Origin: a virus
Lineage: Duplodnaviria; Heunggongvirae; Uroviricota; Caudoviricetes
Reading direction: 5' to 3' (one strand)
Virus record (IMG/VR): IMGVR_UViG_3300045988_138709
DNA: 40,733 bases
Shown here one piece after another: positions 4,210-6,450 of the stretch. The first letter of the stretch is position 1; every line of letters starts with the position of its first letter. Both the position numbers and the translations under genes were made by a program. Under the pieces are notes generated by a model that saw only the letters and a list, made by a program, of their open reading frames with translations, had not been told where the DNA came from and did no database searches.

Positions 4210-4355
4210 GTTTCTCCACAAAACAGAGAAGAACACCTGCGGTGACTGCCGCCCGGATGGATTGGGTTATGAGCCCGTCGTCCGGTGATGCTCTTCTCTG
4301 TTTTGTAAAAAGGACGGTACCAGCCGGAAGCAAGGGTACAAGCTGGTACCGCCAA
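4210..4355. other. Structured non-coding block: nested long inverted repeats
   Basis: ~17-bp inverted repeat ACAAAACAGAGAAGAAC / GCTCTTCTCTGTTTTGT (about 4219-4235 and 4291-4307) and a perfect 9-bp stem GGTACCAGC/GCTGGTACC (about 4317-4351). Overlapping low-quality ORFs on both strands. Confidence 0.4.
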
Positions 4356-4637
4356 GACTACACACAGCATAAAGTTGTGGTGCCGGGTGCCTCCCGGTGC
4401 CTGGCGAAGGTTGCACACCAGGCGGGTGGGTATCCACAGAAGGTCGACTGTCAGCCTCAACCTTAACCCGCGTGCGCTGAGCCGCATTCACCACAACGCT
4501 AAGGATTCTCTCTGGTTGAAAATACTTAGCTGTTATGTGCCTGCTTTTAGCCACATCAGGCGAGGTGGACCTAGTTATTCCCCAACAACAAGGATTCGGT
4601 TAATCTGGTTATCCCCAACAACGCAAAAGGAAAAGAA

Positions 4638-5072
4638 ATGTCCGGTAATATCTATACGCTGTACAAATCCCACTGTGAAAATGTTGGAAAGTATCGGGGC
4701 ATTGAAATCAGTGGGGTAGTGTCATCAGTCGAAATAAGCAAAGTTGAATCAAGGGCAACATTACTTACTCTTTTGGACCTTGTCTTACATGAGCACCGGA
4801 AGAAATTCGGCACTCCCTATAATCAGTTGAATGGGAAAAAGGCTCTGGTTCACCTTATTCTGATGAAGCATCACTGGATGCCAAAACAGATTAATGAGAT
4901 GAAATTTGATGAACTTCTTCTTTCAATTCAGGATGAACTCACACTTGATAAAATAAGCGTAACCGCCCAGAAATTTTTAGATTATCGAGACTGGAGATCA
5001 CAAATTCATCACTTTGATGATTTTGACGAAAATGAATGGGATCCTAATTTGTCTGCACAATATCTAAAGTAA
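4638..5072 (+). CDS. Hypothetical protein encoded antisense to the early-left operon
   Basis: 144-aa ORF with ATG and AAAGGA RBS; AT-rich; no motif recognised. Confidence 0.5.
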   Translation: MSGNIYTLYKSHCENVGKYRGIEISGVVSSVEISKVESRATLLTLLDLVLHEHRKKFGTPYNQLNGKKALVHLILMKHHWMPKQINEMKFDELLLSIQDELTLDKISVTAQKFLDYRDWRSQIHHFDDFDENEWDPNLSAQYLK

Positions 5073-5250
5073 CATCCTGTGATAAAACCGTGATTTCCTG
5101 ATCCAGTTTTTTTAAGGAGTCTATTGTTTCCTGTCGATAAGACAGCACTTCACGAAGCTGGTTTATAGCTGCCAGCTTCTTTGTCATCCACTCATAAATT
5201 TCCTCATCTGTGTAGCCAGGCGCGACGATTTTGGGTTCTGTTTTGTGCAT
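5044..5250 (-). CDS. Small hypothetical protein (first gene of leftward early transcript?)
   Basis: ORF 5044..5265, start placed at internal ATG (MHKTEPK...). 3' end overlaps the convergent 4638..5072 gene. Weak. Confidence 0.35.
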   Translation of the reverse strand: MHKTEPKIVAPGYTDEEIYEWMTKKLAAINQLREVLSYRQETIDSLKKLDQEITVLSQDVTLDIVQTN

Positions 5251-5310
5251 TTCACATCTCCTCAAGTTATCAGTTACTTGTTGATGGGGACCAGATTGTT
5301 AAAGAGCTAA

Positions 5311-5332
5311 GCGTCCTGTAGGGCGCTTTTTT
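5311..5332 (+). terminator. Putative intrinsic terminator (hairpin plus T6)
   Basis: GCGTCC-TGTA-GGGCGC followed by TTTTTT, read by eye. Confidence 0.35.
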
Positions 5333-5409
5333 GTTGCTAACGAATCATCCTGGACTTCATATGCCCCAGGCGGCTACTTCGTGGGCGTCCTGCCTGTTCG
5401 TTGTTTCTC

Positions 5410-5446
5410 TTGGGTACATTACGTATCTCAAAGGTACATTGTCAAG
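5410..5446 (-). promoter_or_regulatory. Putative OL/pL: two GGTACATT repeats and a TTGACA -35 on the minus strand
   Basis: GGTACATT at about 5413-5420 and 5433-5440 (20-bp spacing); minus-strand TTGACA at 5445..5440; -10 is weak. Position just outside the repressor terminator matches a lambdoid pL. Confidence 0.4.
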
Positions 5447-5471
5447 TATAAAAAAACCTGCCGAAGCAGGT
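5447..5471 (-). terminator. Intrinsic terminator downstream of the repressor gene
   Basis: Minus-strand ACCTGC-TTCG-GCAGGT followed by a T7 run, immediately after the repressor stop. Confidence 0.55.
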
Positions 5472-5484
5472 TCATAAACATTGA

Positions 5485-6159
5485 TTAGGCTTTGATTTTG
5501 TATCTTCTTGGTTTTCCTGAGAAAATCACTGTACCAATTATAGAGCAATTACCGTTGATCTTAATGTAAGGCTCAGGCCAGTTTGGGTTTAACGCTTTGA
5601 GATAACGCTGTGTCCCATCTTCTATTAACCTTTTGAAGGTGGTTTCACCTGTATCGTGCATCAATGCAATAACGTCGTCACCGTGGCAGGCAGGTACTTC
5701 AGGATCGACAAAAATCATGTCTCCCGGGCGGTACTCATCAATCATTGAATCACCTATCACCCGCAAGATATAAGTCATTTCCCCACAGGGTACAGGGCAG
5801 GGATACGTTTCTGCTGTGCTCAAATCAACCTCAGAATATCCAACTTCTTTCCATGCTCCGGCCTGTACCCATGATATGACAGGGACTAATGTGATTTGTT
5901 TATTAGTGATTGAAACATCAGGTTTTTTTGTGATGTTCGTTGTCTGGTGTTCTTGATCGAGCCATCCGACAGGTAGGTCGAAACATTTTTCGATGTGTCG
6001 TGCCATGCTGTCACCGATATTTTTAGTAGCACCATCTCCCATAAACCTGCTGGTCTGGGTTGGCTCGCGATCAATCATAGTGGCAAAGGAAGAATTCCCG
6101 CCAACACCATCTCTCAGTTTTCTGGCGTTAGACCGCCGGATGTCATGGATTGTTTTCAT
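5485..6159 (-). CDS. cI: CI-like phage repressor (N-terminal HTH plus C-terminal S24 LexA-like peptidase domain)
   Basis: 224 aa; C-terminal autocleavage-domain motifs (...VISWVQAGAW..., GDSM, ...TFKRL...); divergent from the Cro-like gene; no obvious SD ahead of its ATG. Confidence 0.85.
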   Translation of the reverse strand: MKTIHDIRRSNARKLRDGVGGNSSFATMIDREPTQTSRFMGDGATKNIGDSMARHIEKCFDLPVGWLDQEHQTTNITKKPDVSITNKQITLVPVISWVQAGAWKEVGYSEVDLSTAETYPCPVPCGEMTYILRVIGDSMIDEYRPGDMIFVDPEVPACHGDDVIALMHDTGETTFKRLIEDGTQRYLKALNPNWPEPYIKINGNCSIIGTVIFSGKPRRYKIKA

Positions 6160-6169
6160 AACGAAATTA

Positions 6170-6249
6170 AAACCCTTGTACCGTTAAGGTACAAGTATCT
6201 TGAAGGTTCATTTCAATCATGTAATATGTACACCGGAGGTACATATTGT
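6170..6249. promoter_or_regulatory. OR region: two palindromic operators plus pR (TTGAAG-16-TAATAT)
   Basis: Palindromes CTTGTACC-N5-GGTACAAG (about 6175-6195) and ATATGTAC-N7-GTACATAT (about 6224-6246, overlapping the -10 at 6222-6227); -35 TTGAAG at about 6200-6205. Confidence 0.55.
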
Positions 6250-6450
6250 ATGAAAGCGTATTGGGACTCTTTAACCAAAGAACAGCAGGGCGAGTTGGCC
6301 GGAAAAGTTGGCTCAACACCTGGCTACTTACGGCTGGTTTTCAATGGCTATAAAAAAGCCAGTTTTGTGCTGGCTAAAAAACTTGAGCAATGCACGTCAG
6401 GTGCAATTACGAAATCTGACTTAAGACCGGATATCTATCCGAAAGATTAG
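6250..6450 (+). CDS. cro: Cro-like HTH regulator
   Basis: 66-aa protein from internal ATG (MKAYWDSLTKEQQGELAGKVGSTPGYLRLVFNG...) of ORF 5995..6450; sits directly behind pR/operator, divergent from the repressor. Confidence 0.7.
   Translation: MKAYWDSLTKEQQGELAGKVGSTPGYLRLVFNGYKKASFVLAKKLEQCTSGAITKSDLRPDIYPKD

Follow-up and report, generated by a model that had tools for sequence, protein, structure and literature searches.

The question raised by this locus is what kind of unit lies beside the early-left promoter, where a 144-aa gene runs against the lytic transcript. The window, which is the whole 40,733-nucleotide stretch of DNA analysed (IMG/VR record IMGVR_UViG_3300045988_138709), contains a variable cassette at 4569..5340, not assigned to either strand, between conserved flanks. 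It has the same extent as the feature that an earlier note had described as an opposite-strand moron gene with tandem upstream repeats. In SfV, SfII, PhiR29, e14, mEp460 and other relatives, the match is limited to window positions 4450-4568 and 5341-5480; many E. coli prophages likewise have only the flanks in common, and the cargo is absent. The GC content is 34-42% in the cassette and 49-58% in the flanks. The moron reading is therefore borne out by the absence of the cassette from collinear relatives, its AT-rich composition, and a terminator on the plus strand (5309-5332, found by terminator scan). The left flank contains an STnc100-like RNA; the right flank contains PL/OL and cI. The left flank (window 4450-4568) was matched in 1936 of the 5426 complete E. 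coli genomes, about a third, and the ECs1072-type cargo of the window was found in 406 of the 5426. The region is an AT-rich moron cassette at a hot spot beside the early-left promoter of SfIV/SfV/e14-type lambdoid prophages.

The slot has been filled with 23 or more unrelated types of cargo in one common frame, arranged in the order of leader (with repeat 1 and a -35/-10-like pair), 5' arm (repeat 2), downstream inverted arm, and terminator. The conserved leader, referred to as class A (ACCTrGTTATTCCCCAACAACAAGGATTCGGTTAATCTGG; 4569..4608, plus strand), contains repeat 1 (4575-4589) and is common to at least 23 cargo types, at 120 IMG/VR loci and in several E. coli genomes. It also precedes some cargo that has no downstream arm and terminator. 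The conserved trailer GTTAAAGAGCTAAGCGTCCTGTAGGGCGCTTTTTTGTTGCTAA (5298..5340, plus strand) contains an intrinsic terminator, with the hairpin at 5309-5328 and T6 at 5327-5332. The trailer was present in 103 of the 128 leader matches, which comprise 120 IMG/VR stretches, other loci, and the window itself. The loci with both leader and trailer were reduced to 69 distinct cassettes, which belong to 23 types and at least five protein families. The trailer and its terminator are kept behind all class A cargo, as expected for a moron with its own terminator. A literature search on ECs1072, ymfI/ymfJ, SfIV/SfV/e14, and hot spots did not turn up any account of this cassette frame.

The early-left promoter was located on the minus strand. 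A PL-like promoter (5398..5445, score 10.8) consists of TTGACA at 5445..5440, a spacing of 18 nt, and TAATGT at 5421..5416. This region holds two ATGTACC operator half-sites, which are similar to the OR palindromes (6175-6195 and 6227-6245). The opposition of the 144-aa gene to the early-left transcript, as claimed in the earlier note, is thus supported by both promoter and OL half-sites. At another locus, L229, the same PL-like sequence abuts an ECs1072-like gene. The STnc100-like structured RNA (4304..4527, minus strand) comes after the cassette in the PL transcript and ends in a DicF-like 3' hairpin. It matches STnc100 (RF02076) over the full length of the model (positions 1-206) with 43.4 bits, which is below the gathering score of 47 (E 3e-8).

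The plus-strand gene (4638..5072) was confirmed as an ORF with the Shine-Dalgarno sequence AAGGA at 4627-4631. Its 144-aa product is all-alpha and belongs to the ECs1072 family: it scores 157.8 bits against NCBIfam NF033230, 'ECs1072 family phage-associated protein' (cutoff 70), with residues 4-144 aligned on profile positions 2-142, and it matches phrog_5286 with an E value of 1.5e-90. Its relatives form 76 clusters at 50% identity. The AF2 model has a pLDDT of 94.3 and a pTM of 0.89, and no fold or sequence match was found in PDB, BFVD, Pfam, or PADLOC. The protein had been said to contain no recognisable domain, which holds for Pfam but not for NCBIfam; the proposed homology and structure search yielded an uncharacterised family, but no fold match in PDB or BFVD. 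A role as a DNA mimic was rejected, since the median pI of the family is 5.9 and not strongly acidic. ECs1072, the name-giving gene and a member of the family, was found by its microarray signal to be a regulated transcript in uninduced cultures of O157 Sakai (PMC2241611).

The convergent ORF at the 3' end of this gene also proved to be a real gene, with an overlap of 29 nt (5044-5072). It was listed as 5044-5265 on the minus strand; the true start is the ATG at 5250, with GAGGAG (5263..5258) 7 nt before it. The resulting 68-aa gene (5250..5044) is the first ORF downstream of PL. Its product matches phrog_1744 (E 7.8e-35) over 68 of 68 positions and is 39-41% identical to the annotated ydfC of Qin-like phages. 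The latter is itself a phrog_1744 member (E 9e-39), which places the 68-aa gene in the YdfC family. The protein is hydrophilic and acidic (GRAVY -0.50, pI 4.8).

The convergent pair recurs elsewhere. In the three cassette types of E. coli, the lytic transcript opens with a small gene that is convergent and overlaps at the 3' end. Distant ECs1072 relatives (25-45% identity) were found in Serratia and nine IMG/VR phages, where they lie antisense to the late operon, directly upstream of the holin. Each of these loci has a small gene that converges on the ECs1072 relative, overlaps it, and is the first ORF behind a tR'-like terminator; remote relatives (phrog_3501) of the 68-aa protein are among the genes convergent to distant ECs1072 genes. 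The antisense overlap pointed out earlier is thus repeated in most of the distant relatives examined. In L133, L229, and L230, the lytic transcript does not begin with a convergent small gene. An obligate two-gene module is weakened by L133 and L229, where the big ECs1072-like gene stands alone, and by Citrobacter koseri, where the small-gene family is convergent to an unrelated DUF2441 gene. The ymfI/ymfJ genes of e14 were rejected as homologues of the pair, being assigned to different PHROGs.

The two direct repeats are present as described, TTATTCCCCAACAAC at 4575-4589 and TTATCCCCAACAAC at 4609-4622. As a bare 10-mer, the repeat has 7 matches across the window (at most 1 mismatch) versus 3.1 expected, and a count of 7 was reached in 4 of 100 shuffles, which is unremarkable at the scale of the window. 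The significance of the repeats comes from their position and from conservation at over 100 further loci, the latter being a check that the earlier note had proposed. Beyond the noted pair, there is an inverted third copy at 5277-5297 and a degenerate fourth at 4486-4508; the leader looks like a duplicate of 4486-4515. In all cargo types, with or without the right arm, the core CCCCAACA precedes the start codon by 15-25 nt. Repeat 1 is part of the shared leader and holds its sole -35/-10-like pair; repeat 2 serves both as a CA-rich 5' UTR and as the 5' arm in a long-range inverted repeat. A role of the CA-rich repeats as an AgvB-type anti-sRNA or a GcvB target was considered and rejected as unsupported: the Rfam scan gave no AgvB match, and the GcvB R1-leader duplex (-17.4 kcal/mol) was equalled or exceeded by a fraction of 0.71-0.78 of the shuffles and other windows, in what is a crude test.

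The candidate promoter of the 144-aa gene (4578..4606, plus strand) would consist of the -35 element TTCCCC (4578-4583), a spacing of 17 nt, and the -10 element TAATCT (4601-4606), so that transcription might start near 4613. It has the top plus-strand sigma-70 score in 4380-4640 (8.1); about 0.6 sites of such a score are expected per 260 nt, and the score alone is within chance. Across cargo types, the -10 hexamer changes only towards the consensus (TAATAT, TATTAT, TATAAT) or keeps TA...T, as in L133 (TACTCT); the 3 nt preceding it are variable. This pattern of conservation is suggestive of a promoter.

The 5' arm AATCTGGTTATCCCCAACAAC (4602..4622, no strand assigned) includes repeat 2 and pairs with the 3' arm CTTGTTGATGGGGACCAGATT (5277..5297, likewise unassigned), forming 17 bp interrupted by one mismatch and a bulge of 3 nt. 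MFE folding of the cassette yields this pairing for either strand. The two arms covary: across cargo types, 88% of the cells are paired and 7 of 13 pairs are altered on both sides. These values were attained in none of 500 shuffles, and slid controls were 13-47% paired. The inner part of the helix shows further compensated positions between cargo types. Since the arms change in a compensatory manner, the pairing is selected, and it most likely acts in RNA. In late-region copies of the gene pair, the 5' and 3' ends are not complementary (z about 0); a helix tied to the gene pair was therefore rejected, and it is assigned to the PL slot. Some leader-bearing cargo is also without the helix; together with the late-region copies, this indicates that the helix is not required by the cargo itself. 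In L133, the arms accompany the gene into a different phage background.

The available evidence leans towards the minus strand, namely the PL transcript, as the strand in which the helix forms. Of 33 variants, 26 have the more stable duplex on the minus strand, and folding gave z-scores of -2.88 (minus strand) and -0.66 (plus strand), the latter being no better than shuffles. The count of G-U pairs was rejected as a guide to the strand: it is even in the outer 13 bp (10 vs 11), and the minus bias of the inner helix may only reflect a right arm that is freer to mutate than the left, as the arms are unequally conserved. The helix might instead act in the plus-strand mRNA, where a pairing of 5' end and 3' UTR like the fbi pairing of hok would stabilise or gate the cargo mRNA, and the CCCCAACAAC repeats would be a 5' UTR element (translation enhancer, Hfq or sRNA site). 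Such a role would suit the presence of the helix in the plus-strand MFE fold, the constant place of the CCCCAACA core before the start codon, the end of the 3' arm 11 nt before the terminator hairpin, and the covarying inner part, which would be retained in an RNA starting near 4613. However, if the -10 call is right, the plus-strand RNA begins inside the 5' arm and the outer covarying 13 bp lie outside it; together with the weaker plus-strand duplexes and fold, and a GcvB R1 duplex no better than with shuffled leaders, this makes the plus-strand role rather unlikely. The arms might also function as DNA, as terminal repeats or recombination sites of a MITE-, transposon-, or integron-like mobile cassette, with the direct repeats as remnants of insertion events. 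The arms do bracket the variable DNA exactly, and the common arm AATCTGGATATCC has the palindrome GGATATCC at both ends, possibly a duplicated target or core site; the movement of the L133 arms with their gene and the duplicated appearance of the leader point the same way. Nevertheless, recombinase sites are expected to be constant, whereas these arms differ and stay complementary (7 of 13 pairs), and arms of 13-21 bp, separated by about 680 bp, are ill suited to gene conversion. No cargo in inverted orientation, or outside the slot or its homologue, was found among the leader/trailer loci, and no transposase or integron integrase adjoins the cassette among the window ORFs. A mobile cassette of this kind is considered improbable.

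The earlier suggestion that the direct repeats form a regulator-binding array, which would control the 144-aa gene, is highly unlikely. The spacing of the two CCCCAACA copies, 33 bp or about three helical turns, would suit such an array, in which one copy overlaps the -35 element and the other the predicted start; the copies are also kept across cargo types. But repeat 1 belongs to the leader of at least 23 unrelated cargo types, and repeat 2 covaries with its distant complement at 5277-5297, which a protein-binding site does not need; the copies are unrelated to the operator half-sites of the phage, and the cassette encodes no candidate regulator. The resemblance to toxin-antitoxin arrangements, also proposed earlier, found no support either. 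Here the 144-aa protein would be a toxin or abortive-infection effector, and the 68-aa protein or an antisense RNA its antidote. The convergent 3'-overlap arrangement does recur down to about 25-35% identity at two phage locations, each mRNA is antisense to the partner gene, and the small gene is always on the side of the lytic transcript, which would suit an antidote sparing lytic growth of the phage. Against this, neither protein matches a toxin-antitoxin or defence family: PADLOC-DB v2 (2023 library) gave 0 families at E ≤ 1 for either, and likewise none for the alternative cargo or the DUF2441 partner. The genes are convergent rather than forming the co-directional two-gene operon with a DNA-binding antitoxin and known folds or families of type II systems. 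The small protein, hydrophilic and acidic, is unlike a type I toxin, the 144-aa protein is soluble and helical, and both antisense partners encode proteins, which differs from hok/sok-like systems. The big gene also occurs without the small one, and the small gene with an unrelated partner. A toxin-antitoxin or abortive-infection pair thus has only a small chance of being correct.

The preferred model combines the shared frame with cargo expressed in lysogeny and shut off from PL; as a whole, it is given an even chance. A weak sigma-70-type promoter in the leader, with its -35 element in repeat 1, would be followed by the CA-rich 5' UTR and the Shine-Dalgarno sequence. The intrinsic terminator would end the plus-strand transcript with about 80 bp left to PL/OL, keeping cargo transcription out of the immunity region. 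The helix 4602-4622/5277-5297, most likely formed in the leftward PL transcript, would close off the foreign insert of about 680 nt as a loop; this loop might be a site of RNase III-type processing, or might insulate the folding of the RNA that follows. In the lysogen, CI would silence PL, and the 144-aa protein would be made from the leader promoter by an mRNA that runs antisense over the whole 68-aa gene. Upon induction, PL would fire with the YdfC-like 68-aa protein as the first product; the PL transcript would be antisense to the 144-aa gene, and convergent transcription and double-stranded RNA would shut that gene off. Expression in the lysogen with shut-off upon induction would make the 144-aa protein an accessory protein of the lysogenic phase, most likely for phage exclusion or host modulation. 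This function is suggested by analogy with lysogen-expressed genes beside repressors, since the proteins have no defence, toxin, or regulator signature. A further-reaching reading is a plug-and-play platform of SfV/e14-type prophages, in which a fixed promoter-leader and terminator would express whatever cargo is inserted in the lysogen, and the covarying helix would loop the insert out of the leftward RNA, for processing or so that the regulatory RNA downstream folds undisturbed. In the window, the cargo would be a lysogeny/lysis toggle pair, also placed directly behind Q and tR' in other phages; this reading is regarded as doubtful. As part of it, it is proposed that the YdfC-like protein and antisense transcription might neutralise a lysogen-expressed effector with a new fold.

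Several known systems share parts of this arrangement. The Qin dicB operon (ydfA-ydfB-ydfC-dicF-dicB) likewise has a YdfC-family gene early on a repressor-controlled leftward transcript, and a structured RNA that includes a DicF-like hairpin comes after it. DicF is freed from the Qin dicB transcript by RNase III and RNase E. In Qin-like phages, however, ydfC points the same way as the genes beside it, and no ECs1072-like gene was seen in antisense; the window RNA scores as STnc100 (below gathering), with only 19.4 bits versus 48 for DicF. In the fbi pairing of hok and the RNase III stems of lambda sib, T7 early mRNA, and rRNA precursors, distant complements likewise enclose a unit. The arms in the window are several hundred nt apart, with complementarity kept by compensatory change; unlike in hok, the helix is bound to the slot rather than to a single gene, and there is no small hydrophobic toxin. 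As in excludon-type units, each mRNA would carry a long antisense stretch to the other gene: the plus-strand mRNA would span the entire 68-aa gene, and the PL transcript the entire 144-aa gene. Mutually exclusive, excludon-like expression states might result; unlike in other excludons, the switch would follow the lysogeny/lysis decision through the control of PL by CI.

To our knowledge, a shared frame of leader, terminator, and covarying flanks has not been described for rexAB/sieB, bstA, or STMMW_20121, and a literature search found no account of such a frame with paired flanks for them. Here, unlike in these examples, many unrelated cargo types share one leader, one terminator, and covarying flanks. 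The lambdoid morons (lambda rexAB/sieB; BTP1 bstA; ST64B STMMW_20121; PMC7067206) are likewise AT-rich units with their own terminator, which lie between backbone genes beside the immunity region, against lytic transcription, and vary among collinear phages. The P2/P4 anti-phage hot spots (PMC9122126) similarly combine a fixed site, conserved flanking genes, and many alternative small cargo genes. Unlike them, the slot in the window holds cargo without a match to known defence families among the cargo tested, and this cargo consists of single small genes of about 150-240 aa in a shared expression frame.

What is new is that the feature noted before is a variable cassette with a shared frame, covarying arms, and recurring cargo. 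If the frame is functional, unrelated accessory genes could be inserted beside the genetic switch without disturbing the PL operon or immunity, and the signature of leader and trailer could be used to harvest dozens of uncharacterised lysogen-expressed genes as candidates for exclusion or defence. The predicted structure of the ECs1072 family is confident and without a known relative, and the family lies antisense to lytic transcripts in two locations; Shigella phage SfIV or E. coli lysogens would make it tractable for the discovery of its function.

The 144-aa gene (4638-5072, + strand), the two direct repeats (4575-4589 and 4609-4622), the convergent ORF (5250..5044, - strand), and the terminator (5309-5332, + strand) described in an earlier note were all found again, at the same positions or a few bases away. 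The 144-aa gene belongs to the ECs1072 family. Shigella phage SfIV (KC814930, 27503-28533) is 98% identical to this region, and several E. coli phages and prophages are nearly identical. In the relatives SfV, SfII, PhiR29, mEp460, ST64B, and the K-12 e14 element, only the flanks 4450-4568 and 5341-5480 were matched. The interval delimited in the earlier note corresponds almost exactly to the variable part between them (4569-5340), which has a GC content of 34-42%, compared with 49-58% in the surroundings. Of 5426 complete E. coli genomes, 1936 matched part or all of the query (in most cases the left flank), and 406 contained the cassette itself.

Comparison of 13 loci showed that one group of alternative inserts (class A) opens with a common 40-nt leader (ACCTrGTTATTCCCCAACAACAAGGATTCGGTTAATCTGG) and closes with a common trailer (CCAGATTGTTAAAGAGCtAAGCGTCCTGTAGGGCGCTTTTTTGTTGCTAA); leader and trailer enclose unrelated genes. 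Repeat 1 and the terminator therefore belong to a shared frame, not to the 144-aa gene. Scanning IMG/VR with the leader found 120 loci; once the window and previously retrieved loci were included, the leader matches numbered 128, and 103 of these also have the trailer. They represent 69 distinct cassettes, which fall into 23 types, defined at 80% identity. Besides the ECs1072 family, the same slot carries, on the + strand (loci L003, L006-L009, and L013-L132 from IMG/VR), a coiled-coil plus 2xCxxC family (about 150-178 aa), a two-TM "MTRDD..." family (about 150-165 aa), a signal-peptide protein with weak LprI similarity (163-170 aa), and a 167-aa protein, among others. No class A cargo family was matched in PADLOC or Pfam. 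Judged from these sequence comparisons, the region is a swappable cassette; as a moron in a hot spot beside the immunity region, it is of a known kind. In K-12 e14 (L004, 3162-3749), ymfI (+) and ymfJ (-) occupy the same slot and are also convergent, with a 63-nt overlap, but their sequences are unrelated to the window pair, and the class A leader, arms, and terminator are missing. They provide a tractable K-12 analogue of the convergent layout.

Early-left genes resembling yfdQ and yfdP are encoded on the minus strand. A PL-like promoter on the same strand (within 5398-5445) consists of TTGACA (5445..5440) and TAATGT, 18 nt apart, with two ATGTACC half-sites, which resemble the OR palindromes at 6175-6195 (CTTGTACCgttaaGGTACAAG) and 6227-6245 (ATGTACAccggagGTACAT). 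Beyond it are the repressor gene terminator (5473..5454, - strand), an S24-type CI repressor (5485-6159, - strand), and cro (6251-6450). The 144-aa gene therefore runs against the PL transcript, as had been proposed.

The direct repeats had been read as a possible regulator-binding array, which the comparisons do not support. The 10-mer CCCCAACAAC alone is not significant across the window (7 matches, 3.1 expected). Repeat 1 carries a -35 element (TTCCCC), followed by a -10 hexamer (TAATCT, 4601-4606); this is the only promoter-like site on the + strand, and its score (8.1), taken alone, does not exceed chance. From one cargo type to another, the three bases preceding the hexamer vary, while the hexamer is retained or nearer to consensus (TAATAT, TATTAT, and, through a 1-nt insertion, TATAAT); the diverged leader of locus L133 has TACTCT. 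For this reason the leader site is regarded as a probable, though unproven, + strand promoter that would start transcription near 4613. Repeat 2 forms the 5' UTR of the 144-aa gene, and also the 5' arm of a long-range inverted repeat. In every cargo type, CCCCAACA lies 15-25 nt ahead of the start codon.

The inverted copy, which the earlier note overlooked, lies at 5277-5297 and is complementary to 4602-4622. The arms of most types read AATCTGGATATCC(CCAACAAC) and (GTTGTTGG)GGATATCCAGATT. Changes in one arm are matched in its partner: ATGACT / AGTCAT, AATCTT / AAGATT, AATCTGAAT / ATTCAGATT, and GTAACCCTC / GAGGGTTAC, as well as CAACAATG / CATTGTTG, AATG / CATT, AACAAAT / ATTTGTT, and AACAT / ATGTT in the inner helix. 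For the outer 13 bp, 88% of cells are paired among 19 distinct variants, and both sides have changed in 7 of the 13 pairs; these values were reached by none of 500 shuffles, and slid controls were 13-47% paired. This is good evidence that pairing of the flanks is selected, rather than formal proof, because the variants are related to one another and were picked by eye. The helix is missing where the gene pair recurs in the late region, and some cargo that has the leader lacks a right arm, so the helix cannot be ascribed to the cargo.

On both strands, the minimum free energy fold of the 767-nt cassette includes the helix. Folding on the minus (PL) strand is favored by the fold z (-2.88, against -0.66 for the plus strand) and by duplex stability, which is higher on the minus strand in 26 of 33 variants; moreover, a + strand RNA would start inside the 5' arm if the -10 is right. 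A firm choice of strand is opposed by the G-U counts in the outer helix, which are equal on both strands; the inner-helix bias may come solely from stronger constraint on the left arm than on the right.

The anatomy, modularity, covariation, and recurrence are what is observed; the promoter, the timing, which strand carries the helix, and what the proteins do are inferred. In the most likely model, PL would be repressed in the lysogen, and the leader promoter would yield an mRNA for the 144-aa protein. This mRNA would run antisense across the small gene, and end at the shared terminator short of PL/OL and cI. In a microarray study of uninduced O157 Sakai (PMC2241611), ECs1072 is listed as regulated by growth phase, which weakly supports expression in lysogens. 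Upon induction, transcription from PL would pass through the small gene before crossing the large gene in antisense, turning the latter off. The paired flanks would close the insert off within the PL transcript, upstream of an STnc100-like RNA.

This GC-rich stretch (4304-4527, - strand) scores as full length, with 43.4 bits, just below the gathering score of 47 (E 3e-8); its 3' hairpin (4312-4366) is DicF-like. On the PL transcript it comes directly after the cassette. With no evident N-like gene, this RNA may either be processed into an sRNA or serve as a put-like antiterminator. Deposited records annotate ORFs over it: the N-terminal extension of SfIV_34, SfIV_35, a RefSeq "frameshifted hypothetical", and K-12 ymfH. 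A degenerate extra leader unit (4486-4515; ATTCACCACAACGCTAAGGATTC compared with ATTCCCCAACAACAAGGATTC) lies within its 5' end, and the class A leader seems to be a duplicate of this segment. Directly downstream of the STnc100-like RNA on the PL transcript is a 25-nt inverted repeat (4218-4242 / 4282-4306, 84% complementary, 39-nt loop), with no T-run after it on either strand.

The 68-aa ORF is, from its homology, a real gene. It matches phrog_1744 and shares about 40% identity with annotated ydfC, a gene of the repressor-controlled leftward operon in Qin-like phages. Class A types 0, 15, and 21 each combine an ECs1072-like gene with a convergent YdfC-like gene. ECs1072 relatives at 25-45% identity were examined in Serratia (L139; same arrangement in L234/L235) and nine IMG/VR loci (L220-L228). 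Unlike in the window, these immediately precede holin, endolysin, and Rz in the late-transcript sense; here too, lytic transcription runs antisense to the large gene. Their small gene, a phrog_3501 member of 79-111 aa with a weak link to phrog_1744, is convergent and overlaps the 3' end of the large gene. Where upstream sequence was read (L139, L221, L222, L224, L225, and L228), it directly follows a tR'-like terminator, as the first late-operon ORF. Where the two genes overlap in several of the relatives from L139 and L220-L228 (L139 among them), the palindrome TGGGATCCCA reads as W-D-P on either strand. Its counterpart in the window is TGGGATCCTA (5036-5046): a CCC>CCT change, synonymous in the 144-aa gene, converts the minus-strand TGG to TAG, which truncates the 68-aa ORF just before the W-D-P motif. 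The suggested toxin-antitoxin reading of the pair found no support. In a limited literature search, no description was found of an expression frame common to at least 23 cargo types whose paired flanks change in compensation, of an ECs1072/YdfC-like convergent pair heading two different lytic operons, or of the confident orphan fold.

The linkage of the two genes is not absolute. The large gene stands alone in L133 and L229, directly abutting PL in the latter. In Citrobacter koseri prophages (L231/L232, 2501-3409), the phrog_3501 small gene is the first after antiterminator Q and convergently overlaps an unrelated DUF2441 gene (phrog_5663), followed by holin; the layout of a small first lytic gene facing an antisense accessory gene is thus broader than the ECs1072 family. 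In L133, which has a different lambdoid background, a GC-rich and probably structured segment (4600-4800) separates the ECs1072-like cassette from a repressor-like gene. The segment is thus on the side of the cassette nearer to PL, the order being reversed relative to the window.
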